Below are positions 3,637-56,321 of a stretch of DNA of 64,000 nucleotides, piece after piece. A program made the translations under genes and the position numbers. The stretch covers positions 519 through 64,518 of the forward strand of contig CAMUZZ010000002.1 in the NCBI GenBank assembly GCA_947165355.1, in the 5' to 3' direction. How positions within the stretch are numbered: the stretch's first letter is position 1; every line of letters starts with the position of its first letter. The DNA comes from an uncultured Clostridium sp. (lineage in GTDB: Bacteria; Bacillota; Clostridia; TANB77; CAG-508). The notes beneath the pieces were generated by a model, which was not told where the DNA came from, did no database searches, and saw only the letters and a list, made by a program, of their open reading frames with translations.

Positions 3637-3655
3637 AATAACTCTCCTTATTTAT

Positions 3656-3693
3656 GTTTACTTTAATTTTTTGCTCCGTCCCCATTATTTAAG
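3656..3693 (-). repeat. Copy R1 of dispersed GGGGACGG-core repeat
   Basis: Minus strand reads CTTAAATAATGGGGACGGAGCAAAAAATTAAAGTAAAC. It overlaps the last 6 codons and stop of the tkt N-subunit and ends just 5' of the SD of the tkt C-subunit. Confidence 0.7.
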
Positions 3694-4502
3694 TCATTTA
3701 ATGCTTGATTGTACTCTTCTTCATTTGGCGCTTTTCCGTGCCATTCAGCTTTGTCTTCCATATAAGAAACACCTTTTCCTTTTGTTGTAATTGCAACAAT
3801 GGCTGTTGGTTTTCCCTTAACTGTTTTTGCTTTGTTAAAAGCTTTAATTAAGTCTTTTATTTTATTTCCGTTTACTGAAATTACGTTAAATCCAAAACTT
3901 TCGAACTTTTCTTCAATTTTATTTAAACCTTTAACTTCTTCAATTGAACCATCTATTTGTAAATTATTATTATCTACTACTACACATAAGTTGTCTAATT
4001 TGTATTTACTTGATGTCATTGCTGCTTCCCATACCTGGCCCTCTTCAATTTCACCATCACCTAAAATGCAATAAACTCTATATCCTAAGCCCTCCATTTT
4101 AGAATTAAGAGCCATACCGTTAGCTACAGATAATCCTTGTCCTAGTGATCCACTCGACATATCAACGCCAGGTACTTTATTTAAATCGGGATGACCCTGT
4201 AGAAAGCTATCTATTTTTCTAAAACTATTTAGTTCTGATTTATCAAAATATCCTCTTTGTGCAAGCACTGAATAAAGTGCTGGACAACAATGACCTTTTG
4301 ATAATATAAGTCTATCTCTAGATTCATCTTTTGGTTTTTCAGGGTTTATATTCATTTGATTAAAATATAATACTGTTAGAATATCTGCAACCGAAAGAGC
4401 TCCCCCTGGATGCCCAGATTGTGCAAAATAAACCTCGTCAATTATATCTTTTCTTACTTGTTTTGCAATATCATTTAGCTCTTGAATATTATCTATTTTC
4501 AT
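3663..4502 (-). CDS. Transketolase, N-terminal (TPP-binding) subunit
   Basis: SGHPGGALSVADIL and GDGEIEEGQVWEAAM motifs. Start set at MKIDNIQEL (4502) behind GGAGGAATCC. The C-terminus GDGAKN is encoded by repeat R1. Confidence 0.9.
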   Translation of the reverse strand: MKIDNIQELNDIAKQVRKDIIDEVYFAQSGHPGGALSVADILTVLYFNQMNINPEKPKDESRDRLILSKGHCCPALYSVLAQRGYFDKSELNSFRKIDSFLQGHPDLNKVPGVDMSSGSLGQGLSVANGMALNSKMEGLGYRVYCILGDGEIEEGQVWEAAMTSSKYKLDNLCVVVDNNNLQIDGSIEEVKGLNKIEEKFESFGFNVISVNGNKIKDLIKAFNKAKTVKGKPTAIVAITTKGKGVSYMEDKAEWHGKAPNEEEYNQALNDLNNGDGAKN

Positions 4503-4726: not shown

Positions 4727-5081
4727 GGGGGTGTAACGGTTTCGACAGTAATTTAGAAGTATAAATAGCGAGTAGTGGATGGTTGCTTCGGCCACTATAA
4801 AAAAGCAAAATAAATATAAACGCTGATAATACAGAATTAGCATACGCTGCCTAATTGCAGCGACGTCTTATCTTTAATGCCCACGTTTTAGAATAAGGCG
4901 ACGAATTTAGTGGGAAACGAAACTATTTCTTGCTATGGAAATAGCGGGTATTTTATAGCTACTCTATGCTAAGGTTTGTTTGTTAACCATAACTTAGGGG
5001 AATTTTAATAACAAACTGCACTCGGAGAAGTTTATATGGAAGAATTATTGGACAGGAGTTCGATTCTCCTCACCTCCACCA
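4727..5081 (+). ncRNA. ssrA: tmRNA (SsrA)
   Basis: 5' GGGGGTGTAACGGTTTCGACAG and 3' GGACAGGAGTTCGATTCTCCTCACCTCCACCA form the tRNA-like domain. The internal tag frame GCT GAT AAT ACA GAA TTA GCA TAC GCT GCC TAA gives ADNTELAYAA. The track ORF at 4625-4843 on the opposite strand is spurious. Confidence 0.9.
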
Positions 5082-8606: not shown

Positions 8607-8662
8607 GGGGACGGTTCTGTTTGACACACTTTTTTAATTTTTGTGTCAAAAGAACCGTCCCC
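8607..8662. repeat. Inverted pair of GGGGACGG-core repeats forming a ~21-bp hairpin
   Basis: GGGGACGGTTCTGTTTGACACA ... TGTGTCAAAAGAACCGTCCCC lies between the cdaA stop and the truA start. No T-run follows on the transcribed strand. Confidence 0.75.
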
Positions 8663-14401: not shown

Positions 14402-14459
14402 GAATTTTTTGCACCGTCCAAAATTTGACTTAATTTTTTTTGTTCCGTCCCCAAAATTC
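14402..14459 (-). repeat. Tandem pair (R3a, R3b) of the GGGGACGG-core repeat in the pheS 5' UTR
   Basis: Minus strand reads GAATTTTGGGGACGGAACAAAAAAAATTAAG then CAAATTTTGGACGGTGCAAAAAATTC, between the T-box terminator and the pheS SD. Confidence 0.7.
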
Positions 14460-14463
14460 AAAA

Positions 14464-14727
14464 AGAGCTATTCATCCTTAATAGGACGAATAGCTCGTGG
14501 TACCACCTAATTTTATATATTTATGCCAATGCTAAAAAGCTTGCATTTATATACCTTGTTATAGTTTTAACGTAACAACCGTATTGCCTACTATTACTTT
14601 CAGCAAATAACCTAAAAAGTGAAATTTCGTACATATTATGCTTTTTGGATTCACAGCTTAATATCCAAATTCTCTTTAAACAAAACATATATACTACTTT
14701 GCTTTTTAATTGGCTTATTTTAAATAT
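14464..14727 (-). promoter_or_regulatory. T-box riboswitch leader of pheST
   Basis: The T-box sequence AGGTGGTACCACGAGC overlaps the terminator GAGCTATTCGTCC-TATTAAG-GATGAATAGCTC plus TTTTT. An AGAGA box sits in stem I, and a candidate UUC specifier lies in GAAATTTCAC. The promoter TTGTAC-17-TGATACAAT is at 14734-14762. Confidence 0.8.
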
Positions 14728-24805: not shown

Positions 24806-24870
24806 TTTCCACCTCCTACTGTAATCTTTGTTTGACTTAAACAAAAACTTACTCAATACTTTAATTTTAC

Positions 24871-24908
24871 GTAAACTTTAATTTTTTGCTTCGTCCCCAA
24901 AATTCAAG
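24871..24908 (-). repeat. Copy R4 of the GGGGACGG-core repeat
   Basis: Minus strand reads CTTGAATTTTGGGGACGAAGCAAAAAATTAAAGTTTAC. It encodes the mfd C-terminus FGDEAKN and its stop. Confidence 0.7.
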
Positions 24909-27900
24909 AATTCTTTTATTGCTTGAAGTTTTTGTTTATCGTTTAATGCGTTTGTTTTTAACGTTATGTATGGATCTTTTCCTTGTGAAAACATTATTTG
25001 ATTTTTGTACTTTTCAACCAAAGATGCAATATCCATATCAAACTTTTTAGCATTGAAATAAAATACAAAATTTTGTCCTCTTTGAGATATCTTTGTTGCA
25101 TTTTTCTCTTTAGCTAAAATTTTAATTCTTGCTATATCAATTAAATTCTCAAGCTCTTCAGGCATTACTCCGTATCTGTCTATTATCTCATCAATTACAT
25201 CTTGAATATCCGCTTCATTTTTACACAATGCAATATCTTGGTAGATTTCAATTTTTTGACCTGAATCTGATATGTATTCATCTGGTATATAACTTGATAC
25301 ATCTATGTCTATTTGTACATCTGTATCTTCTTCCACCTCGTATCCTTGCATTTCTTTTACAACTTGGTCTAGTAATGTACAATACATATCATATCCTACT
25401 TGCTCTATATGACCATGCTGAATTTCTCCAAGCAGGCTTCCTGCTCCCCTTATTTCTAGGTCACGCATTGCAATTTTAAATCCAGACCCAAACTCTGTAA
25501 ATTCACGTATTGATTTAAGCCTTTTATTTGCTACTTCAGATAGTATTTTATCCCTTTTGTACATAATATATGCATAGGCCTGTCTATTACTTCTTCCAAC
25601 TCTTCCACGAATTTGATATAGTTGTGCTAAACCTAATCTTTCTGCATTTTCTACAATAATGGTGTTAGCATTTGGTATATCAATTCCCGATTCCAAAATT
25701 GTTGTACATACAAGCACGTTTATTTTTTTATTTACGAAATCTTCCATTATAGATTCAATTTCGTTTCCTGTCATTTGACCATGCGCATGTGCAACTTTGG
25801 CTTCATCAACTAAGTTAGATATCTCTGCGGCTTTCTTTGCTATATTTTCAACATTATTATATAGATAATATACCTGCCCTCCACGTTCTAACTCCTTAGT
25901 AATTGCTTCTTTTATAACTTCTGTATCATACTCCATTACATAGGTTTGCACAGGCTTACGATTTTGAGGTGGCTCGTATATAACAGACATATCACGCACC
26001 CCAACAATTGACATATGAAGTGTTCTAGGAATTGGAGTTGCTGTCATTGTTAATACATCAACTGTATTTTTTATTTGTTTAATTTTTTCTTTATCCTTTA
26101 CACCAAATCTGTGCTCTTCATCTATTATTAATAGTCCTAAATCCTTAAATTCAACATCATCGCTTAATACACGGTGCGTTCCAATTACAACATCAAGCTC
26201 ACCTAATTTTAGTTTTCTAACAATATCTTCTTGTTGTTTTTTTGTTTTAAATCTGTTTAATACCTCTACTCTTATAGGATATTCCTTCATACGATCACGG
26301 AAATTTTGATATTGCTGCTCTGCTAAAACTGTAGTTGGAACCAAATAAACAACTTGTTTTTGATCCATTACAGCTTTAAAAGTTGCTCTTATTGCAACTT
26401 CAGTTTTTCCATAACCAACATCACCACAAAGAAGTCTATCCATTGGTTTTTGAGATTCCATATCCTTCTTTACTTCTTGAATACAACGTAATTGATCCTC
26501 AGTTTCTGCATATTGAAAGCTATTTTCAAATTCTTGTTGCCATTCATTATCTTCAGAAAAAGCATGGCCTTTTGCATTTTGCCTTTTAGCATATAACTCA
26601 ATCAGCTCTTTAGCTACAGCTCTTAAATTATTTTTTACTCTTGTTTTTGTATTAGACCAATCTTTTCCACCTAGCTTATATATTTTTGGAGCAGCTTCCC
26701 CTCCAACATACTTTCTAACACTATCTAAAGAGCTTGTCGGAACATATAAAATATCATCATTTTTATATCTAATTTTAATGTAATCTTTTGTTGTATCTAC
26801 TGTTGTAACTGTGTCTACTCCTATGTATTGTCCTATTCCATGAACTTTATGAACAACATAATCACCTATTTTTAAATCTGCATAAACAACTTTTTCACTT
26901 TGTTTAAACACATTGTTTACTTTTTTACGCTTGCTTTTTGTTTCGAAAAATTCATCACTGCTTATTACTAAAAGCTTTGTATCTGAACACTCAAAACCAG
27001 CTGATAAAGCTCCAACAGATACTACAACTTCGCCATATTGAACATCTTTTAATTCTTTTGCATATCTATGGTTTATATCGTTATCTGTTAAAAGAATAGA
27101 TATTTTTCTAGCATTTTCTTCATTTCCGCCAAGTATTATTGTTTTTTTCTTTAAATCAATTGCTTCTCTTAAAGAATTAAGTAATATATCTGTTTCAGCT
27201 TTATAATAGTTTACATCTCTATACTTGAAATAATATATGTTGTTTCCAAAAGCCACATCATTTTTTTCTAGATTTATATAATTTATGTTTTCAAAGTTGT
27301 AATCAAAATTACACATATGCTCTATTGCATCTGGAACAATTCTGTTTTTATCAATAAGTGTTTTAACTAAATTGTTATTATCTATTTTTATATTTTCAGC
27401 TCTTTGCTTAATTTTAGTATCTTCATCTAGTATAATTAAATAATCATCTTTAATATAATCTAAAAAACTATTTGGGTTTTGATAAAATAAATCAAAATAT
27501 TTATCAACTTTGCTTAAGTAATTACCTGATAGAATTAATTCTTTATCTTCCTCGGTGCATTTTCCGTACAAATCAATTCTTTGTTTTATATCATCCAAAT
27601 CTTTCTCGAAAATAAACTCATGAGCTGGATATATTTCTATTTCTTCGCTCATCTCAGTTGATCTTTGTGATAGTATTTCAAATTTTCTTATTGAGTCTAT
27701 TTCGTCTCCCCAAAACTCAATTCTTATTCCATATTTATCATCTAATGAAATATCTACAATACCTCCACGTATTGCAAACATTCCTCTACCTTCAACCATT
27801 TCAGAACGCTCATAGCCAAGATTTATTAAGTAGTTTTTTAAATCGTCTATTTTACACTCGCTACCAACTTTTAGTTTAATAATGTTCTTGTACAATGTTT

Positions 27901-29620: not shown

Positions 29621-30364
29621 TTATTTTACGTATTTGTCAATATTTTCATTAGTTAATGATGTCTTTACTTCAACGCAATCTTTTATTTGAGCTTCATATT
29701 TTTCCTTTGAAACCTTTTCGTCGTTAACGTAATAATATAAAGTGTCATTGCTATAGTCTAAATCTGCTTTTGCATATTTAACAAATTCAGTTCCTTCAAT
29801 ACGATACACTGAAGTAATTCCTGTTGGTTCATTAGTTACAGTTACAATATGTTTATTTAAATCTGCTTTAATAAAACTATATTCTCCAGATATTGTTTTG
29901 CTTGAAGCAACAACTTTTCCATCTTTATATGTTACAACTCTAGCATATTGGCTACCTGATGCACATTCAGAACATACTAAATATGCTGGATTTCCATTTA
30001 TACTAGCCATTTTAGCAAAATATGTATCTGTGTGTTTTTGGTTTTCAATTGCCCTGTCTTCACTTTGTTTAAAATACTCTGGTAACACATTTTCCTTTAA
30101 CCAACTTTCGTCTTTTAAAGCTTTTCTTATAGCTTCATTTGCAGTATTTACGCTTGTATTATTGTTATTATTATTCTCTGTAGTTTTGTTTTCTTTTAAC
30201 TCGTTATTTACAGTATTTTCAACTTGGCTAGCAACATTATTTAAAGTTTTTTCAAGTTCTTTTTCATAGTTTTTAATTTTATTTTCCTTTTTTCCACATC
30301 CTGTTAATAACACTACTGTGCTAAGAACTACTCCACCTACTAATAAAACATTTCTAATTTTCAT
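29621..30364 (-). CDS. Putative lipoprotein (paralogous N-terminus with 33515-34399)
   Basis: Lipobox LLTGC, then GKKENKIKNYEKELEKTLNNVASQVEN. Confidence 0.6.
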   Translation of the reverse strand: MKIRNVLLVGGVVLSTVVLLTGCGKKENKIKNYEKELEKTLNNVASQVENTVNNELKENKTTENNNNNNTSVNTANEAIRKALKDESWLKENVLPEYFKQSEDRAIENQKHTDTYFAKMASINGNPAYLVCSECASGSQYARVVTYKDGKVVASSKTISGEYSFIKADLNKHIVTVTNEPTGITSVYRIEGTEFVKYAKADLDYSNDTLYYYVNDEKVSKEKYEAQIKDCVEVKTSLTNENIDKYVK

Positions 30365-30382
30365 AATTATTTCTTCCTTTCT

Positions 30383-31306: not shown

Positions 31307-31447
31307 TCCTTTTATTTTTATTTGAGAACGCTGCTTTTTTCTAACATTGTTCTGCTATCTCCTCAAACGTTAATTTTATTATAAATTCCATTTGTTTCAA
31401 AAAAATATAAAAGTTGTAAAAAAGTTGTAAATTAATCTTTTGTACAT

Positions 31448-32806
31448 TTATGCTGGAAATTCTAATATAAAAATACTTCCTTTTCCAAGTTCCGATTCAA
31501 TTTTAAGTTCTCCGTTATGCATATCCATAATGCTTTTACAAATTGAAAGACCTAGTCCAGCTCCTCCATTCTTTCTTGAACGAACTTTATCCACTCTGTA
31601 AAATGGCTCCGTTATTTTTTGAATGTTCTCTTTACTTATTCCTGGTCCTTGATCTGCTACTTGTATATATTTTTTATTGTTCATTTCAAATGCGTTAATA
31701 ACAATTTTACTTCCTCTGTCTGATACATTAATAGCATTTTTAATTAAATTAGATGTACTCATTATAATTAATGTTTCATCACCATATATAGTATTTAATT
31801 GATTGTTTATAATTAATTCTACACCAGCATTTTTTAATCTTTCTTCTAGCGTACTATGTATTTCCGAAAATGCTTTGTTCATATCTACGTTTGTTTTTTC
31901 AAAATCTGAATTTTTTTTATATGATAAAAGAAGTAACTTCTTATACATATCTTGTATTCTTTTAGATTCATCTTCTATGTATTTTAAATACTTACTTTTT
32001 TGTTCGTCTGTTAAATTTGCTTTTTCCATTAGTTCAGCATAACCCTGAATAGATGTTAGTGGCGTATTCATTTCGTGAGATAAATTGTCTATAAATAACT
32101 GTTTATTATTTGCCGCTTCTACTAGTTCATTATTTCTTCTTTCAAGTTCCTTTGACATGCTATTAAAATTTGCAGCAAGTTTTCCAAATTCACTATGACC
32201 TTCCTTTAGGTGAATATCATAATTTCCTTTAGAAAGTTTTGTCATTTCATTTTTCATTTTTTGTAATGGTTTAGTTATTGTTTTAGAAATAATATACGCA
32301 ATTAAAGCTATTGCAACTACCAAAATTATGCCAATGTATATACAGTTATTTATTAAATTCTTTCTTGTATCAAATACATCATCTATATTTTTAACCACTA
32401 TTAAATATCTTCCATCATCAACTTTTGATGCTGATGTTATATAATTTAGTTCATTAAAATTATTTGTTTCAGTTGAATATATATTTTCATTTACAGAGCT
32501 TATGAGTTTATTGTAGTCCATAGGATATAAGTTGTTATTATACAACACTTCATTATTCTTACTATATATAATGTAAATACCTTTTTTTTCGTATGCAGGT
32601 GCTATTAGCTCTATAATATCTTTATCGTAATTTATACCTGTATTCTTTAAATTACGCTCTATATCTTTAGCACTTTGAACTACAGCCTGTCTTTCATTCT
32701 CTATATTTGTTTCATGATTTGCATCTATTACTTTCATAGAAATTATAAGAATTGCAATTATTGAAGGAATGCATATGCCAAGGAATATTTTAAATGATAG
32801 TTTCAT
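31448..32806 (-). CDS. Sensor histidine kinase (TM-HAMP-HisKA-HATPase)
   Basis: H-box LSHEMNTPLTSI and G-box GGAGLGLSICKSIM. Confidence 0.9.
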   Translation of the reverse strand: MKLSFKIFLGICIPSIIAILIISMKVIDANHETNIENERQAVVQSAKDIERNLKNTGINYDKDIIELIAPAYEKKGIYIIYSKNNEVLYNNNLYPMDYNKLISSVNENIYSTETNNFNELNYITSASKVDDGRYLIVVKNIDDVFDTRKNLINNCIYIGIILVVAIALIAYIISKTITKPLQKMKNEMTKLSKGNYDIHLKEGHSEFGKLAANFNSMSKELERRNNELVEAANNKQLFIDNLSHEMNTPLTSIQGYAELMEKANLTDEQKSKYLKYIEDESKRIQDMYKKLLLLSYKKNSDFEKTNVDMNKAFSEIHSTLEERLKNAGVELIINNQLNTIYGDETLIIMSTSNLIKNAINVSDRGSKIVINAFEMNNKKYIQVADQGPGISKENIQKITEPFYRVDKVRSRKNGGAGLGLSICKSIMDMHNGELKIESELGKGSIFILEFPA

Positions 32807-33514: not shown

Positions 33515-34399
33515 TTATAGTTGGTATTTTTCAGCTAAATATGAATTAATAACTCCTTTTGAAATTTCAACAGTTTTTACACCGTCTGCTCCACTTCCAA
33601 ACGAATACTTAGGTAAAACAACAACAAATTGATCATCTAAAATTCCATAATTTCCGTTTTGATTTAATATTTCGTCAATTGATTTGTCTACATCATTTTG
33701 AATATATGAGAAATTGTTATTTACGTAATTTTTTATTATCTCACGCAAAGCATTTTTTAGCTCTGTTTCATTTTTAGCCATAGTTCCAATAGTTAAAAGT
33801 TCTCCACTTTGAGCATCGTATGTATAAAACTCTCTTGCTGTCCAGCTAACACCGCCCATGCTTCCGCTTTGATTAGCTTCTATGGTAACCACTTTACTGT
33901 TATTTGCAGCAGTTTTCATTACATAGCTTACCCCGTAAGGTGTATCATATGCTTTCATACCACCTTCGGTGTATTCATTAGCTGACTTTGTTAATTCATT
34001 CCAGTTTTTGTCTGATATTTCTCTTAGAGAATTTTCTATTTTAGTTGCAGCAGCTGAATTAGCTAAATTCTTTACTGTAGGTATGTTTCTTTTATTATAA
34101 AAAACTGTTTTGCCTTCTTTATCTTGTGTTGTATATTCTTCACTTCTGAATGAAATTTCAAACCCATTTTGATTTGTAGTACTTGATGAAGATGTTGCAT
34201 TATTAGTTGTATTTGTTGTATCAATTTGATTTTCTAAACTATTAACTTCATTTTCAATTTGCGCAGCAACATTATTTAATGTTTTTTCAAGTTCTTTTTC
34301 ATAATTTTTAATTTTATTTTCCTTTTTTCCACATCCTGTTAATAGTACTGCTGTGCTAAGCGCTACAACTCCTATTAATAAACCTCTTTTTACATTCAT
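33515..34399 (-). CDS. Putative lipoprotein
   Basis: Lipobox LLTGC. The N-terminal 30 aa are nearly identical to 29621-30364. Confidence 0.6.
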   Translation of the reverse strand: MNVKRGLLIGVVALSTAVLLTGCGKKENKIKNYEKELEKTLNNVAAQIENEVNSLENQIDTTNTTNNATSSSSTTNQNGFEISFRSEEYTTQDKEGKTVFYNKRNIPTVKNLANSAAATKIENSLREISDKNWNELTKSANEYTEGGMKAYDTPYGVSYVMKTAANNSKVVTIEANQSGSMGGVSWTAREFYTYDAQSGELLTIGTMAKNETELKNALREIIKNYVNNNFSYIQNDVDKSIDEILNQNGNYGILDDQFVVVLPKYSFGSGADGVKTVEISKGVINSYLAEKYQL

Positions 34400-34520
34400 T
34401 TGTATATCTCCTCCTTATACTATACAATAAGAAACCATGTCTTATTTTTTCCGATTATATCATACAAGCATTTCTATTGTAATAAAATTAAATAAATTTA
34501 TTTAAATTTGAGAGGTTATT

Positions 34521-35974: not shown

Positions 35975-36051
35975 TGGTAGCGAGAAGTGGATTCGAACCA
36001 CCGACCTGCCGGGTATGAACCGGATGCTCTAGCCAACTGAGCTATCTCGCC
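35975..36051 (-). tRNA. tRNA-Met (CAU anticodon, elongator type)
   Basis: Minus strand reads GGCGAGATAGCTCAGTTGGCTAGAGCATCCGGTTCATACCCGGCAGGTCGGTGGTTCGAATCCACTTCTCGCTACCA. It folds as a cloverleaf with encoded CCA. The anticodon arm resembles Bacillus elongator tRNA-Met; Ile2 (lysidine) is not excluded. Confidence 0.9.
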
Positions 36052-36454: not shown

Positions 36455-36594
36455 TGCTAATTTGCACCTCCATTTTTTTCAAAATAGCATTCGTACATAA
36501 TATATGATAGCATATTTTTTTCGAAAAAGCAAATTTTACAGCTATAATTTGTATTTTTTGCTCTATTCAAAACTTACGTATAATAAATCTAATT

Positions 36595-36632
36595 GTAAAC
36601 TTAAATTTTTTGCTCCGTCCCCAAAATTTAAG
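36595..36632 (-). repeat. Copy R5 of the GGGGACGG-core repeat
   Basis: Minus strand reads CTTAAATTTTGGGGACGGAGCAAAAAATTTAAGTTTAC, starting 2 nt after the sigA stop. Confidence 0.7.
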
Positions 36633-36633
36633 T

Positions 36634-38400
36634 TTAGTTCATATAGTCTTTAAGTTTTTTACTTCTACTTGGGTGTCTTAGCTTTCTTAAAGCCTTAGCT
36701 TCAATTTGTCTAATTCTTTCACGAGTTACTTTAAACTCTTTTCCAACTTCTTCAAGAGTTCTTGCTTTTCCATCTTCTAATCCAAATCTAAGTTTTAAAA
36801 CTTTAGCTTCTCTTGGTGTTAATGTTTGCATTACTTCTTCTAATTGCTCCTTTAGTAATGTGTATGCAACTGAATCTTGTGGAGCTGGAGAATCATCATC
36901 TTGAATAAAGTCTCCTAAATGGCTATCATCTTCTTCTCCTATTGGAGTTTCAAGTGATACAGGATCTTGAGCAATTTTTTGTATTTCAATTACCTTATCA
37001 ACTGGAATTTCCATTTCTTTTGCAATTTCTTCAGCGGTAGGCTCTCTTCCAAGTTGTTGTAATAGATGTCTTGAAGTACGTATTAATTTGTTTATAGTTT
37101 CAACCATATGAACTGGAATTCTTATAGTTCTTGCTTGGTCTGCTATAGCTCTTGTTATAGCTTGTCTTATCCACCATGTAGCATAAGTACTAAATTTGTA
37201 TCCTTTTGTATAATCGAATTTTTCAACAGCTTTAATAAGACCCATATTTCCTTCTTGGATTAAATCTAGGAATAGCATTCCTCTTCCAACATATTTTTTA
37301 GCTATACTAACAACTAATCTAAGGTTTGACTCTGAAAGCTTCTTTTTAGCCTCTTCGTCACCTTTTAAAATTCCTTTGGCCAATTCAATTTCTTGTTCGT
37401 ATGTTAATAGAGGTATTTTTCCAATTTCTCTTAAATACATTCTAACTGGATCATCAACACTAACACCTTCAATGTTATTAACGTCTATATCTTCAAGCTT
37501 TATTTCTTCTACTTCTTCTAAATCTTCTAAATCTGGCTCTTCATCCAAATCTTCTTCTTTGTCAATTGAAATTCCCATTTTTTCGAATTTGTCAAATAGC
37601 TCTTCAATTTGATCTGTTGAAGCATCACTTAAGTTAGCTGCTAGCTCTCCGTATGTCATTCCACCTTGTTTTTGAGCTTTTTCAATTATTTTACCAATTT
37701 TGTCTTCAGGCTCTGCTTTTGCTTCGCTGCTCTTTGTATCTTCTGAATCATTTTCTTTTTCAGCCTTTTCTGACTTAGATTCTTTTTTAGATTTTACAGA
37801 TTCTTCATCGCTTTTTGTTTTATCTGAATTTTCATTTTCTGCTTTTTTTGTTTTAGCAGATTGCTCTTCTTTAATTGCTTTTTCTTTCTTTTCTTCTTTA
37901 CTTACCTTAGCTGGTTTTTCCTCTTTGCTTACTTTAGCTACTTTTTCTTCTTTGCTCATCTGTGCTGTTTTTTCTTCTTTTTCATTTTTTTCAGTATCTT
38001 TAGATTTTGTACTTTTTTTGTTTTCTTTTTCAACTACAGCAACCTCTGTTATTACCTTAATTACTATTGTTTGTTTTTTCTCGTTAATATTCCATTCAAT
38101 ATTGTTTGATATAGTATCTGGCTCTAATTCAACTTTTTTTCTGTCTACTACTACTTTTAGTTTTGTTTTTGCTGTATCGATTTTATCCTCATCTTTACAT
38201 TTAACAAAATTTAGTACTAGTTTTGTATCATTTAAATTTATGTTATATGTTTCTTTTTTCTGAAATTCGCTCTGTATAGAAAATTTTCCACTTCTACTTG
38301 ATGTTAATTCTTCTTTGTTTATAGTGCATGCTGTATCTTTGCTTTTTATTACTTTGCCTAATTTATCTATAAGTTCAATTTCAATACTATAATTTTCCAT
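36634..38400 (-). CDS. sigA: RNA polymerase sigma factor SigA/RpoD with ~230-aa N-terminal extension
   Basis: The C-terminal ~360 aa is a complete group-1 sigma ([27 protein letters not shown]; region 4 [26 protein letters not shown]). The N-terminus adds a ~115-aa beta-rich module and a KE-rich linker. Confidence 0.9.
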
Positions 38401-43529: not shown

Positions 43530-44486
43530 TTATTTCTTATAATTTTCATTTTCTTCTCTCTTGTCGTTATATTCTTTGACAAAATATAATGGTCTGTGTT
43601 TTGTTTCGTTGAAAATTCTTCCTAAATATTCTCCCATTATTCCAATTAGCATAATCTGTACACATGAGAAGAATAATATTAGTAGAATTCCCGCTTGGTG
43701 AATTTGTACCAATTGACCATTAACTATGCATTTAATAACAACATGAATTAAATATCCTAACAATAAAAGAAATGTTGGTATTGTTAGATATGTTGAAATT
43801 CTTAAAGGTGACGTTGTAAAAGAAGTAATACCATCAATTGCAAGATCAAATAACTTTTTGTAATTCCATTTTGTTTTTCCTGCAATACGTGGATCTCTAT
43901 CGTATAAAACTTCTTTCTTGTTGTATCCAATCCAACTAAACATACTCTTTGAACATCTGTGAGTTTCTCTTAATTGTAATAGGGCGTTTACACATCGTCT
44001 ATCAAGTAATCTGAAGTCTCCCGTATCTTTTTGTATTTCAACACCTGCTAGCTTCTGCAATACTCGGTAATACATTTTTGATGTAAACTTCTTAAAAAAA
44101 GATTCACCTTTTCTAGATTTTCTTCTAGCATACACATCGTCATAACCTTGTTCCCAGTATGTAATTAACTTTGGAATAAGCTCTGGTGGATCTTGAAGAT
44201 CCGCATCTAAAAATATCACTGCATCTCCAGTTGCATAATCTAATCCAGCAATCATAGCAACTTCTTTTCCAAAATTTCGTGAAAAATCTACATAGCTTAT
44301 TCTGTTATCTTTGGCTCGAAACTCTTTAATAAGTTGTAAAGTTTTATCTTTACTACCATCATTAACGAATAGCACTTCAAACTCATAATTTTCTATTTTA
44401 TTAATTACATTACTTAACCTTTCGTACAACATAGGAATTGCTTCTTCTTCATTGTATGCAGGTATTATTATTGTTATTTTCTTCAT
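43530..44486 (-). CDS. GT2 polyprenyl-phosphate glycosyltransferase (GtrB/ArnC-like, 2 C-terminal TM)
   Basis: IIIPAYNEEEAI, VNDGSKD, FLDADLQDPPE. Start at MKKITIII (44486). Confidence 0.8.
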   Translation of the reverse strand: MKKITIIIPAYNEEEAIPMLYERLSNVINKIENYEFEVLFVNDGSKDKTLQLIKEFRAKDNRISYVDFSRNFGKEVAMIAGLDYATGDAVIFLDADLQDPPELIPKLITYWEQGYDDVYARRKSRKGESFFKKFTSKMYYRVLQKLAGVEIQKDTGDFRLLDRRCVNALLQLRETHRCSKSMFSWIGYNKKEVLYDRDPRIAGKTKWNYKKLFDLAIDGITSFTTSPLRISTYLTIPTFLLLLGYLIHVVIKCIVNGQLVQIHQAGILLILFFSCVQIMLIGIMGEYLGRIFNETKHRPLYFVKEYNDKREENENYKK

Positions 44487-45542: not shown

Positions 45543-46481
45543 CTAGTCTATATTTATTTTTTTCTTAATTATATACTGCGGTCTTTGTTTAGTTTCGTCG
45601 TATATTCTACCAATGTATTCAGATATTATTCTTAAAGATAGTAACTGAACTCCTGCAAAAAAAGTTATTCCTATCATTAGAGAAGTCCAACCTGCGGATA
45701 AGTCATTTAGCTTAAAAATGTACGATAATAAGGCATATACTAGTAATGCAAAAGATATGAATATGCTAAATACTCCCAAACCTCCAACGATTTTTAGAGG
45801 TTTATTTGAAAAACTAATTATTCCGTCGCTAGCTAGTCTAAGCATTTTTCTTAATGGATATTTTGTTTTTCCTGCAAAACGTTCTTTTCTTTCATATTCG
45901 TATGGAATCTGTTTGTATCCAACCCAACTAAACAAACCTCTTAAAAATTTGTTATGTTCTGGCATTTCATTTATAGTATCTACAACTTTTCTGTCTACTA
46001 GCCTAAAATCTCCTGTATCTTTTGGAATTTCAACGTCAGACAGAGCATTTAATGTTTTATAAAACATCTTTGCAGATAATAATTTAAATGGAGATTCTCC
46101 TGCTCTAGACTTTCTTTTGCCATATATTACTTCATATCCTTGCTCCCACAAATTTAACATTTCTGGTATTAGCTCTGGTGGATCTTGTAAATCCGCATCA
46201 ATAATTACTATTGCATCACCAGTTGCATACTTTAGTCCAGCAGTCACAGCTGCTTGATGTCCGAAATTTCTTGAGAATGAAATAACTTTTAAATTATCAT
46301 CATTTTGAGCAAGTTCTTCTAAAATATCTAATGTTTTGTCTTGGCTTCCATCGTTTACACAAACTATCTCATAGTAATACTCTTTTAAATTATTTAACGT
46401 GCTTGATAATCTTTTGTAGCATTCATTTACTACATCTTCTTCAAAGTACATTGGTACTATAATTGAAACCTTTTTCTTCAT
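45543..46481 (-). CDS. GT2 polyprenyl-phosphate glycosyltransferase (GtrB-like), paralog of 43530-44486
   Basis: IIVPMYFEE, VNDGSQD, IIDADLQDPPE, and 2 C-terminal TM. Confidence 0.8.
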   Translation of the reverse strand: MKKKVSIIVPMYFEEDVVNECYKRLSSTLNNLKEYYYEIVCVNDGSQDKTLDILEELAQNDDNLKVISFSRNFGHQAAVTAGLKYATGDAIVIIDADLQDPPELIPEMLNLWEQGYEVIYGKRKSRAGESPFKLLSAKMFYKTLNALSDVEIPKDTGDFRLVDRKVVDTINEMPEHNKFLRGLFSWVGYKQIPYEYERKERFAGKTKYPLRKMLRLASDGIISFSNKPLKIVGGLGVFSIFISFALLVYALLSYIFKLNDLSAGWTSLMIGITFFAGVQLLSLRIISEYIGRIYDETKQRPQYIIKKKINID

Positions 46482-53599: not shown

Positions 53600-56321
53600 C
53601 TATCTATACAGATAATTCATGTCAACATTTCCTTTAATTCCATTAACACTACCTGTTGAAGTATATTGCCACATTTTATAAGGTTTAGTATAACTACATC
53701 TGCTACTCCATTGAGCTACCCATTTGTCGTATGCGTCCAGTTTGCTATCATTTAAGCTTGTTACCATCCAATAGTAACTTGCATATATTCCAACGTCATA
53801 TCCGTTTGCTTTTATTGTGTCACAAAAAGTTTTACATATATTAACTAACATAGCATCTGAAGGCATTCCCTTTCTTTCTTTATATCCATCAGCATCTTCC
53901 ATATCAAACCAAACTCCCAATGGTACTCTATGTCCTCTTATTAATCTTAAAACATGGTTTGCCTCTGAAATAGCACCTGCTTCATTTAATGCATACGAAT
54001 ATAAATATACTCCATAGTCAATACCTAATCTTTCACATTCATTCATATTTCTTACAAAACGAGAATCATCTTGCTCAGGTAAATTTTCACCATATCCACA
54101 CCTTAGTATTGCAAAATCAATTCCTGAATTCTTAACAGTATTCCAATCAATATTTCCTTGGTGGTTAGATACATCTATACCTTTTAATTGTTTTTTTGTT
54201 GGAATATTAATACTAAAAATTTGAGCATCTGTACCATTTGATTCATATACCCCTACGTTAGTTCCATTCGCTGAATTAGCGCCATCCACATCTAAATATA
54301 AACCATTTTTTCTAGACACTATACTATATTTATTATTCTCAACTTCTATAATCGACCATTGTTGTGAAACACTCTCATTCCAATCATATTGAACTACATT
54401 TCTTTCATTTGAATCTAATGTCAACACCTTGTTAGAATGCAATGCTTCAATTTTATAATAACCATCCTTTAAATAACTAATTCTAAATTTTTGTTGGTTA
54501 ACGTCGTCTTTAGACCATATTTGTAAATTAGCGCTATTTGACATTCCTCCACCTGATATGTCTAAAACCATATTACTTTTTATTTTGGTTTCTATTTGAT
54601 AAGTTCCTTCATCAATAGCTCTTTTACTTGTTTTTTCAAGAATAAACTGTTGCGCTAATGTTCCATTTCCTTTATATGTTTGCAAGCGCGTACCAACTTC
54701 TGTGTTTCCACCACATAAATCAGCATATAAATTATTGCATTTTGAAATAAAACTATACTTATTATTTCCTAAGTCTTTTATTATCCATTTTTGCGCATCA
54801 GTTCCATTGCTATCGTACTGCTGTATTCCAACTTCCATGTCTAATGATGCACCAGGAATATCTAAACTTCTTCCGGAATGTACTAGCTTAATGCTATAAT
54901 AACCGTTATCTAAGTATTTTATATCAAATTTTTGACAATTTGCGTCTGTATCATTACACACTACTATCTGTGCAGAGTTTTCTTTTTTTCCATTAGCTGC
55001 ACCTAATACTTTTGATGTATCTTTTGCCGATTTAATTTTATATATTCCATCATCTATTGATTTTTGACCTTTCTCATTTTCCACACTTTCAAACGTAAAA
55101 TGTTGTGCTAATGTTCCATTCATACCATACATCTGAACTTGAGTTCCGATTATTGTCTCTTCCTCCAGGTATATCCCAACATAAATCATTGCATTTCGAT
55201 ATTACTGTATATCTGTTTTCTTCAACTTCCCTTATTATCCATTTTTGTGCATCAGTACCATTTGAACTATATTGTTGTATTTTTATTTCCATATCTCTGC
55301 TTGCACCTGGCACATCTATTGATTTATTAGATTTTACTGATTTAATTTCATAATATCCATTATTTAAATACTTTACATTAAATACTAAATTTGAATCTTC
55401 AGTATAATCTTTAACAACAATTTTTGCTCCATCTTTTTTAGATTCGTTCTCTAATCCTAAATACTTATTGCTGTTTATTCCTAAACTAATTTTATAATCC
55501 CCATCTTCAATTGTCTTTGTTCCTTGCTGATGAATTACTTTTTCAAAAACAAATTGTTGCGCAACGGTTCCATTTCCATAATACATCTGTATCTTAGTTC
55601 CAACTTCTGTTGATGCACCTGGTAAGTCCCAATATAAATTATTACACTTTGATATTAAGCTATATGAACCATTGTCATTTGGGGTTATTTTCCATTTTTG
55701 AGCATCTGTTCCATTGGATTCATACTGATGTAGTTTTGTTTCTATGTTGTGACTTGCTCCTGGAACATCGATTACTTTAGATGAATTAATTGCTGTAATT
55801 GTGTAGCATCCATCATCGCAGGATTTTATTCTGAATATATAATTTGACTCATTTGTATAATTTTGCAAAACAATTTTTGCTTCATTGTTGTTTGAATTAT
55901 TTTCTATGCATAAATACCTTTTATCATTTTTTTGAGACTTTATTCTATATTCCCCATCTTCTAAAACTTTTTCGTATTCTTCTGTACTCTCTATATTAGA
56001 TTTATATAGTTTCGCCGTATTTTTCTTAACAATTAGTTCTTCTTTATTTTCACTGCTTTCTTCTGGTTCTTCAGATTTTTTTTTCTGAATATTGTTTTCT
56101 GATTTTTCTTCTTGTTTTTTTATTTCTTGCTCATCAACTTTAGCGTCCTCTAATGTATTCTTTTCATTTTTATCTTCATGTTCTACACAATTCAATATAT
56201 CTGTCGACTCAACTTTTATACTATTGTCACTTATTGATTCTTCTGCAAAAACAAAAATCGGATTTAAACATAAAATTGTTATCAAAGCAACAAAAACTAG
56301 TATTTTATTTGTTCTTTTCAT
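53600..56321 (-). pseudogene. Secreted multi-ricin-lectin (beta-trefoil, QxW) GH25 muramidase, interrupted by a 1-nt frameshift near 55160-55168
   Basis: Track ORFs 55089-56321 and 53600-55189 overlap in different frames. Deleting one G in CCTGGAGGAAGAG restores DIPGEETIIGTQVQMYGMNGTLAQHF, colinear with the sister repeat DLPGASTEVGTKIQMYYGNGTVAQQF. The signal peptide is at 56321. The GH25 domain (GIDVSNHQG...WQYTS) is at the C-terminus. Confidence 0.65.

Follow-up and report, generated by a model that had tools for sequence, protein, structure and literature searches.

The question raised by positions 36595–36632 (minus strand) of a 64,000-nucleotide stretch from an uncultured Clostridium sp. 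(assembly GCA_947165355.1, contig CAMUZZ010000002.1, positions 519 to 64,518; hereafter the window, meaning the whole stretch) is what kind of element the short repeat found there represents, since units of about 35 nucleotides with the same core recur elsewhere in this DNA. Three options had been offered in the initial annotation: a site for the processing or stability of RNA, a decoy that binds a protein or ribosomes, and a miniature element of the REP/BOX kind. The analysis presented here makes it very probable that the repeats are non-autonomous hairpins of the repetitive extragenic palindrome (REP) type, belonging to a REPtron system whose long, 'TIRYT'-type REP-associated tyrosine transposase (RAYT) of the HUH/Y1 kind is bracketed by the same hairpins. 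Of the three options the last one was thereby upheld, through the RAYT bracketing and the doublets of fixed polarity, and the RNA site and the decoy were not.

The window has a GC content of about 29%, a strongly negative GC skew on the plus strand and almost all of its genes on the minus strand. A degenerate 24-mer, WTTTTGGGGACGRARCAAAAAATT, allowing up to three mismatches, matched at four places (3665, 14434, 24880 and 36604), all on the minus strand, against 0.00 expected from 100 shuffles, and the shorter GGGGACGR occurred six times against 0.12 expected, the inverted pair at 8607 (+) and 8655 (-) being among these matches. The copies carrying GGGGACGG comprised four strong units, one decayed tandem and one inverted pair, with a chance expectation of about zero, at a density of approximately one repeat per 10 kb. 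A covariance model (CM) trained on 44 units from other genomes and the window gave exactly four significant matches here (36594–36635, 24870–24911, 3655–3696 and 14424–14465), all on the minus strand and with E-values from 3.7e-10 to 3.2e-6, the next best match standing at E 0.24. All loci of the dispersed minus-strand repeat described in the initial annotation were thus present at the coordinates given there, and the pattern and covariance searches found copies above chance in the window, with at least 114 loci elsewhere (loci from other genomes carry the prefix L below).

The best-preserved unit, R5 (36595–36632, minus; CM 53.9 bits, E 3.7e-10), is a REP-type singlet and the sole copy in the window with an intact stem: a perfect 10-bp helix of CTTAAATTTT and AAAATTTAAG encloses a 13-nt loop, GGGGACGGAGCAA, and is followed by a 3' tail GTTTAC. 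It begins 2 nt past the stop codon of sigA, the upstream open reading frame (ORF) with Sigma70 domains. The singlet R4 (24871–24908, minus; 45.8 bits, E 3.6e-8), with one mismatch in the stem and an A in place of a G in the loop, covers the final codons and the stop of mfd (…LNFGDEAKN*), and a gene for a SpoU-type methyltransferase lies downstream. In the singlet R1 (3656–3693, minus; 42.6 bits, E 2.2e-7) the stem has decayed from TTTT to TAAT and there is no stable fold; this unit covers the 3' end of the transketolase N-subunit ORF (…LNNGDGAKN*), 25 nt before the start of the C-subunit gene. The predicted RNA folds of R5, R4 and R1 had energies of -6.7 (z -3.1), -2.8 and 0 kcal/mol, respectively. 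R1 and R4 overlap the last 8–9 codons plus the stop of the transketolase-N and mfd ORFs, so that, of the copies first placed at gene ends or in short inter-cistronic spaces, these two proved not to be intergenic. A shared C-terminal peptide was considered and rejected as the conserved entity: R1 and R4 do encode LN(N/F)GD(G/E)AKN* in frame, but in L072 these nucleotides at the mfd end are read as MFLGTEQKNIAK*, and R5 does not share the frame of sigA, which speaks against a translated tail. The nucleotide sequence, not the peptide, is common to the copies, and the encoded peptide is therefore a by-product.

Two further units, R3a (14429–14459, minus; 37.9 bits, E 3.2e-6) and R3b (14402–14427, minus), form a tandem pair between the terminator of a T-box leader and the start codon of pheS. 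R3a directly follows that terminator (T-box RF00230 at 14479–14719, terminator at 14496–14465), and its 5' arm with the T-run constitutes the terminator's U-tract (TTTTTGAATTTT; window 14465–14496 and 14424–14465), i.e., R3a is a REP fused to a riboswitch-type terminator. A unit lying likewise just behind a terminator-like hairpin was observed in L025. R3b, whose loop reads GGACGGTGCAA, sits about 60 nt before the pheS start; both copies had been claimed earlier, and R3a was recovered as such, R3b only as a decayed second unit with five mismatches in 23 positions that the CM missed. The outer arms of the two can pair with each other, the joint fold reaching -16.5 kcal/mol (z -3.95). The remaining locus, at 8607–8662 between cdaA and truA, is a REPIN-like inverted pair forming a hairpin of about 21 bp (DNA fold -22.7 kcal/mol, z -7.9). 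It had been counted as a fifth locus of the same family; the inverted pair is real, and its distal loop, with the head GGGGACGGTTC, differs from the other window copies and places it in a sister subfamily. Heads like this one flank RAYT genes in L150, L153, L160 and L185. The singlets in the window are old ones.

Throughout the family the unit is a hairpin, visible directly in the DNA, with a variable, covarying, AT-rich stem of 9–12 bp and the invariant 13-nt loop GGGGACGGAGCAA. Its core reads TTTT-GGGGACGGAGC-AAAAAA, and the flanking arms vary by genome yet remain complementary (GATGA/TCATC, GATGT/ACATC, GCTGT/ACAGC and CAACT/AGTTG elsewhere, TTAAA/TTTAA in the window; CTTAAATTTT and GATGATTTT are examples of such AT-rich stems). 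The lengths of the T-run and the A-run covary as well (T4/A6, T5/A7). In an ungapped alignment of 44 distinct units, helix columns 4–13 with 27–36 were paired in 86.8% of cells compared with 67.8% in shuffles, the covariation score was 0.46 against 0.13 in shuffled and at most 0.14 in slid controls, and compensatory changes on both sides were present at 6 of the 10 pairs. The weak AAUUUU/AAAAUU stem proposed from the sequence at the outset was accordingly replaced by a perfect 10-bp helix in R5 and a strongly covarying one in the family. The columns beyond the stem are unconserved, with no GTAG or GTGG.

Several other identities were set aside. An intrinsic terminator was rejected, as it had been in the initial annotation: the T-run lies 5' of the loop, before the stem, and the A-run 3' of it, the stem is AT-rich, and a terminator scan listed none of the units. 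The suggestion that the SD-like (Shine-Dalgarno-like) GGAG in the loop might act as a ribosome decoy found no support, the downstream genes having their own SD and many sister families lacking GGAG. Sigma-54, sigma-B, nut/boxB, ops, CsrA and SD-decoy motifs were dismissed on account of motif mismatch or an unfitting genomic distribution. An Rfam scan of the window returned only tmRNA, T-box and tRNA at gathering score, the best local match at R5 having E of about 5, and among 8 million papers the repeat sequence occurred only in unrelated eukaryotic (primer) contexts; the view that no such clostridial repeat had been described was borne out in both literature and Rfam.

The scan of other genomes was made with TGGGGACGRRRCAAAAAA on one genome per species, and the family figures given here and below are those among the matches listed. 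The at least 114 loci came mostly from uncultured gut 'Clostridia', 'Clostridium sp.' and 'Eubacteriales' metagenome-assembled genomes (MAGs) with 25–32% GC and several loci per MAG, the family being present in at least 90 low-GC loci of gut Clostridia MAGs; isolated single matches in high-GC genomes were, by our own estimate, about as many as chance predicts. The window, too, derives from a metagenome assembly. The listed set contained 180 units in 91 low-GC sources, of which 64 were singlets, 98 belonged to inverted pairs and 18 to tandems, and some MAGs held 4–5 units per approximately 3 kb. The arrangement of the doublets had a fixed polarity: 48 adjacent inverted pairs were (+,-) and none (-,+), with a median start-to-start spacing of 72 nt. 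Tandem (+) units with a weaker second copy were common (L015, L042, L080, L111) and also occurred in the upstream flanks of RAYT genes. A candidate link to phages was discarded, the 18-mer having 0 exact matches in viral contigs.

Some of these loci were more complex. A second hairpin type, TGTCCA-AAAGGAAACGTCCCCGA-TGGACA, with the GGGGACG head on the opposite strand, was observed in L006, L018, L032, L087 and L093, often directly beside a GGGGACGGAGC unit, and since it adjoins standard units such loci are composite clusters of distinct REP subfamilies. In some inverted pairs (L001, L012, L099 and others) the palindrome runs past the unit, extending in L001 into a locus-specific flank (TATGATGAGCTGG…) and in others reaching an extra partial core (GGGGACGAAGC-GATGA-TTTTGGGGACGGAGC), which suggests local inverted duplication or nested insertion.

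The orientation of the units had been described as always following transcription. This was correct for the window and not for the family, in which about half of the copies are in inverted pairs and the intergenic singlets were co-oriented with both neighbouring genes in 18–19 cases and anti-oriented in 4. In every case the orientation relative to the genes was also the orientation relative to the local GC skew, co-oriented singlets lying on the G-rich and anti-oriented ones on the C-rich strand; because the two always coincide, transcription-linked and replication-linked polarity are inseparable in these loci. A G-rich GGGGACGG, with all window singlets on the leading-strand sequence as judged from GC skew, is what would be expected if the octamer were a chromosome-polarity or recognition signal in an AT-rich context, comparable to KOPS/SRS, Chi or uptake sequences; in Neisseria, DNA uptake sequences (DUS) form hairpin-like inverted pairs resembling those found here. 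However, the conserved unit is not an octamer but 35–40 nt long with a covarying stem, its density in the window is merely about one per 10 kb, the frequent inverted pairs cancel any polarity, and the association with a RAYT accounts better for the distribution, which leaves a signal of this kind scarcely credible.

The enzyme was not evident from gene neighbourhoods: ORF clustering over the 91 loci found no recurrent neighbouring transposase, the recurrent families being ABC ATPase paralogues and housekeeping genes. Searches by tblastn with approximate probes for IS608 TnpA and the E. coli RAYT pointed to ORFs in L034 and L022, which were subsequently checked by Pfam, NCBIfam and fold searches. 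Both ORFs (L034 6482–7255 and L022 4570–5325) lie between inverted units and encode proteins of about 250 aa. They matched Pfam Y1_Tnp (1e-14 and 2e-11, respectively) and the NCBIfam model REP_Tyr_transpos ('REP-associated tyrosine transposase', NF047646), for which L034 scored 83.4 bits, above the cutoff of 80, and L022 69.7 bits, below it; the IS200 model NF033573 gave only 28 bits with a cutoff of 55. The HUH motif is NHAH and the tyrosine motif YIH(M/R)NP. An AlphaFold (AF2) model with pLDDT 85.6 placed a helical C-terminal domain behind the HUH core, and its best Foldseek match in the PDB was 4ER8, the E. coli TnpA-REP with REP hairpin (E 2.8e-6, TM 0.68, target-normalised), with the ISDra2 and IS608 transposases ranking behind it. 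Pfam gave no significant match for the C-terminal approximately 100 aa. In blastp against the proteins of the Di Nocera 2013 supplement, six long TIRYTs were matched at 3e-30 to 5e-23 (sml_1152 at E 3e-30 and pca_3049 at 4e-28 among them) and three classical RAYTs at 4e-11 to 2e-7, and the similarity to E. coli TnpA-REP was weak (E 0.018 in one comparison and 2e-7 in another). The protein clade comprised 1,199 clusters at 90% identity (E ≤1e-10), all of them unnamed. An IS200-type TnpA at L035 6403–6954 (Y1_Tnp E 1.4e-40) was set aside as unrelated: its MAG carries the REP family, but the gene adjoins no unit.

The bracketing itself is seen directly in the flanks of these genes. In L034 a (+) unit is located about 50 nt before the start codon and a (-) unit directly behind the stop; in L022 the stop codon is also followed by a (-) unit, and the upstream side has a loop-less hairpin. 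A survey of RAYT flanks was made in 80 metagenomic loci encoding homologues at 36–67% identity. Around the closer homologues the CM detected the same arrangement, (+) upstream and (-) downstream, with matches on both sides in L117–121, 124, 132, 134, 138 and 179. The distant homologues were flanked by other hairpins of the same polarity with GGGGAC kept at the 5' side of the loop, for example GATGATTTTGGGGTCGGAGACAAAAATCAT, GAACATTGGGGACGTTCCTAAAATGTTC, TGTCAATGGGGACGCCCCTTTTTGACA and GTGCCATTGGGGACGGAGAATTTTGGCAC, and one of them, GAAACATTTGGGGACGGTCTTGTTTTGTTTC, resembles the window pair at 8607–8662. Of 74 loci, 67 had GGG[AG]C in sense orientation within 300 nt upstream of the RAYT (125 sense and 15 antisense occurrences), and of 68 loci, 63 had it in antisense orientation within 200 nt downstream (96 antisense and 17 sense). 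For 45% of 136 distinct heads, compared with 5% of controls, a perfect stem of 6 bp or more had its 5' arm ending 0–3 nt before the head, and the loops across the clade measured 11–19 nt with a mode of 13. That the hairpins differ by RAYT lineage around a constant GGGGAC head indicates co-evolution of enzyme and repeat, and as the units flank the RAYT with the polarity of the doublets, the doublets look like REPtrons lacking their RAYT, i.e., REPINs. In L122, L123 and L125 the ABC-F gene upstream (…LGIF*) was seen to end on a TAG within TTTTAGGGACGG, the REP head supplying the stop codon. A single fixed chromosomal site for the RAYT was given less weight, such an ABC-F context being present upstream in just 14 of 70 loci (RAYT identities 37–66%).

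The same data bear on the possibility that the units are terminal inverted repeats (TIRs) of a conventional DDE-type insertion sequence (IS) or miniature inverted-repeat transposable element (MITE), the inverted pairs being MITEs moved by an unrelated transposase. Their inverted ends of about 35 nt, AT-rich spacers and overall length of about 105–115 nt agree with such a structure, and some spacer subfamilies recur within one MAG (L004, L022, L046). However, no DDE transposase recurring beside the units was found in the 91 loci and the Y1/HUH enzyme is the only gene systematically bracketed by them, each end is itself a covarying hairpin, many spacers within one MAG are wholly different, and no target-site duplications were seen, although these were not searched for systematically; a DDE-type origin is accordingly very improbable.

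Among published systems the closest description is that of TIRtrons. The account of Di Nocera, De Gregorio & Rocco (2013, PMC3733652) presents RAYT-like 'TIRYT' genes flanked by TIRs, some of which share GGGGWSAS and some of which are self-complementary, with dispersed copies that stand alone, in dimers or in clusters. As in a TIRtron (e.g., S. maltophilia K279a ORF 1152), our system has a long RAYT-like Y1 enzyme, far nearer to TIRYTs than to classical RAYTs, and the inverted repeats that flank its gene also form a dispersed family. Sister families with GGGGACAC (L133, L143, L147) fit GGGGWSAS exactly, and the window GGGGACGG and the variants GGGGACGT and GGGGTCGG deviate at position 7. In contrast to our family, the TIRtrons described there come from Proteobacteria and Acidobacteria; the strings 'Clostridi' and 'Firmicutes' are absent from the main text of that paper. 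Our head differs, in a comparison with the TIRtron architecture as described in that text and not base by base, in its position at the 5' side of an 11–19-nt loop of a covarying hairpin, and our copy density differs in reaching 4–5 units per 3 kb.

The likeness to the classical REP, BIME (bacterial interspersed mosaic element) and REPIN-RAYT systems, such as E. coli TnpA-REP and the Pseudomonas REPINs, includes short extragenic palindromes occurring as singlets and inverted doublets, a RAYT bracketed by inverted copies, a REP_Tyr_transpos match, the 4ER8 fold and co-evolution of repeat and enzyme; a preference for sites downstream of ORFs, with some units intragenic, is also stated for REPs in the abstract of PMC3733652. 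A canonical REP, however, has a 5' GT[AG]G at 0–2 nt from the hairpin foot, a GC-rich stem and a 2–5-nt loop (Quentin et al., 2018, PMC6006769), and our repeats have none of the three: there is no GT[AG]G foot, the stem is AT-rich, and the loop of 11–19 nt carries the conserved GGGGAC. The enzyme, with about 250 aa and a helical C-terminal domain, is also longer than the canonical RAYTs of about 150–165 aa. In this respect it resembles subclass 2.1 (Quentin et al., 2018), or Group 1 (Bertels et al., 2017), with a mean of 238 aa, a C-terminal extension and the motifs NHxH and Y...NP, and Group 1 RAYTs were reported to be 'also found in the Clostridia' (Bertels et al., 2017). Both surveys reported subclass 2.1 and Group 1 to be without associated REP-like sequences, in contrast to the pervasive hairpin association in our clade, and the motifs of subclass 2.1 in the TIRYTs that our enzyme resembles are NHVH and YIELNP in comparison with our NHAH and YIH(M/R)NP. 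We infer from these sequence features that our clade belongs to subclass 2.1. Membership in the CGTC-tagged REPs was rejected. According to the main text of PMC3733652 these have the tag at an unpaired end, an 8–9-bp stem, a 4–5-nt loop, a CCA tail and no transposase; the GACG of our head does read CGTC on the other strand, and both kinds are short palindromes often arranged as head-to-head dimers, but our GACG is enclosed in a 13-nt loop, and our family does have a transposase. With no description of the family in Clostridia found, it is an atypical, loop-headed form of the known REP/REPIN kind.

The age and turnover of the units were apparent from orthologous junctions, several family loci being syntenic with the window at a nucleotide identity of only 69–78%. 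The mfd|spoU junction, occupied by R4 in the window, holds a unit in L072 too, with mfd reading through it in another frame; in L028 and L039 a unit precedes the orthologous tkt-C gene as R1 does, behind different upstream genes; and in L025 a single GGGGACGGAGC unit stands at the cdaA|truA junction, where the window has its inverted pair. L077 has two units at a junction that is empty in the window, inside an otherwise conserved promoter-like block. The units are therefore both long-lived and gained or lost at orthologous sites. Between window positions 31340–31460 (minus) and L077 2440–2560 an intergenic block of about 60 nt, TAATTTACAACTTTTTTACAACTTTTATATTTTTTTGAAA(C/T)AA…, was observed to be almost identical, with flanking genes only about 76–78% identical; the block holds a direct repeat of TTTACAAC and may be the promoter or operator of a lipoprotein-like gene.

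Persistence of this kind, at mfd|spoU, tkt-C and cdaA|truA with a nearly invariant core and flanking genes only about 69–76% identical, would also be expected of a host-selected RNA element at cistron ends, acting as an mRNA stabiliser, processing site or termination modulator, with the transposase link secondary. Every window copy is co-oriented with transcription, as are most of the listed singlets elsewhere (the 18–19 against 4 given above), 19 of 37 singlets and 20 of 48 paired units contain the stop codon of the co-oriented upstream ORF, and E. coli REPs are reported as 3'UTR regulators in a preprint (bioRxiv 10.64898/2026.03.23.713779). However, the inverted pairs, which hold about half of the copies, would put the opposite strand into any transcript, orthologous sites show gain and loss of units, the loop survives in R1 and R4 although their stem pairs have gone, and gene orientation is inseparable from the orientation given by GC skew. 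Furthermore, bracketing of a transposase with fixed polarity across its whole clade is not predicted by a role in RNA stability. A primary function in RNA is thus improbable, and the reading of the units as REP-type hairpins of a RAYT system is preferred. RNA-level side effects are possible under that reading too, since the units often overlap stop codons: being co-transcribed and located at or over these, they may change the C-terminal residues of proteins, put hairpins close to the point of termination, or affect translation termination or the stability of mRNA 3' ends.

How the hairpins spread can be proposed by analogy with IS608 and with TnpA-REP, for which strand-specific binding, cleavage and rejoining of single-stranded REP DNA is established in E. 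coli, S. maltophilia and Marinomonas (PMC8266576). A domesticated HUH/Y1 RAYT presumably disseminates the hairpins: it would bind the GGGGAC-bearing strand in single-stranded form, such as occurs on the lagging-strand template, would recognise the shape of the hairpin together with the conserved loop head, and would cleave and rejoin it nearby, copying or moving units. Action on single-stranded lagging-strand template would account for the location of all window singlets on the G-rich strand, whose sequence is that of the leading strand and of the lagging-strand template.

A number of points weigh against this explanation. The window contains no RAYT homologue in its 64 kb, and the link rests on relatives whose flanking DNA is 69–78% identical to that of the window; the RAYT serving the source genome is probably encoded elsewhere in it or has been lost. 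Mobility and cleavage in the long-RAYT clade are likewise extrapolated from relatives, the canonical REP definition (PMC6006769) does not describe our units, and the RAYT class that the two surveys cited above describe as lacking REPs appears to be the one found here. Units persist at orthologous junctions (flanking genes only about 70–75% identical) with stems that are homogeneous within and different between genomes, a combination which neither pure vertical inheritance nor random transposition explains simply; orthologous sites with genome-specific stems require that units re-insert or are converted where others already stand, or that target preference is strong. Finally, the Bacteroidaceae MAGs L031, L047 and L059, with 46–49% GC, carry an identical core (GGGGACGGAGCAAAAAA) in inverted pairs with GC-richer arms (e.g., CTCGGGCTATTTGGGGACGGAGCAAAAAAT…) and no RAYT within the 8 kb examined per locus, which does not fit readily; these copies could reflect horizontal cross-phylum transfer or a binning error.

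A bolder version of the same explanation is possible, if rather doubtful. It would make this the first REP system for the class of long RAYTs (subclass 2.1, Group 1 or TIRYT) and one with a different recognition logic, in which the GGGGAC-headed loop is read, and perhaps nicked, by the enzyme, and would have the units, about half of which lie at or over stop codons, co-opted as regulators of translation termination or of mRNA 3' ends. A stem free to vary would then present the 11–19-nt loop, which replaces the GTAG 'guide' of the foot of the hairpin, in the manner of Rep at rolling-circle origins, and the co-option would have taken place in the reduced genomes of gut Clostridia, with units persisting at orthologous junctions across genera. 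At the origins of rolling-circle replicons a variable stem presents a conserved loop sequence to an HUH Rep enzyme. Our enzyme differs in being Y1 transposase-like and not a Rep, and nicking in the loop is purely hypothetical.

The window has several other features. A tmRNA gene occupies 4727–5081 on the plus strand, opposite to nearly all genes, and a single tRNA gene is present downstream of sigA at 35978–36051 (minus). The sigA ORF itself (36634–38400, minus) is unusually long: it has 588 aa when read from its first start codon, and only at about residue 232 does region 1.1 begin. At 53600–56321 (minus), two adjacent large ORFs are internally repetitive, with repeats recurring about every 453 nt at 73–93% identity (families D1, D4, D9 and D13), and probably encode repeat-domain surface proteins. 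Two dispersed pairs of direct repeats, 30205–30374 with 34240–34409 (170 nt, 82%) and 44068–44285 with 46060–46277 (218 nt, 72%), are located at or in ORFs and are, to judge from the sequence, most likely paralogous gene segments.

For the organisms concerned, the analysis gives a place to an unannotated conserved intergenic motif of uncultured low-GC gut Clostridia and averts its mis-annotation as a riboswitch, small RNA or terminator. It ties a large unnamed clade of Y1 transposases to cognate repeats, contradicting the published impression that long RAYTs are without REPs, and its co-evolving pairs of enzyme and hairpin, with their invariant GGGGAC head, constitute a natural mutational series for DNA recognition. 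In the essential mfd and transketolase genes the final codons and the stop come from a REP, a direct illustration of how these elements remodel the ends of coding sequences where genomes are compact.

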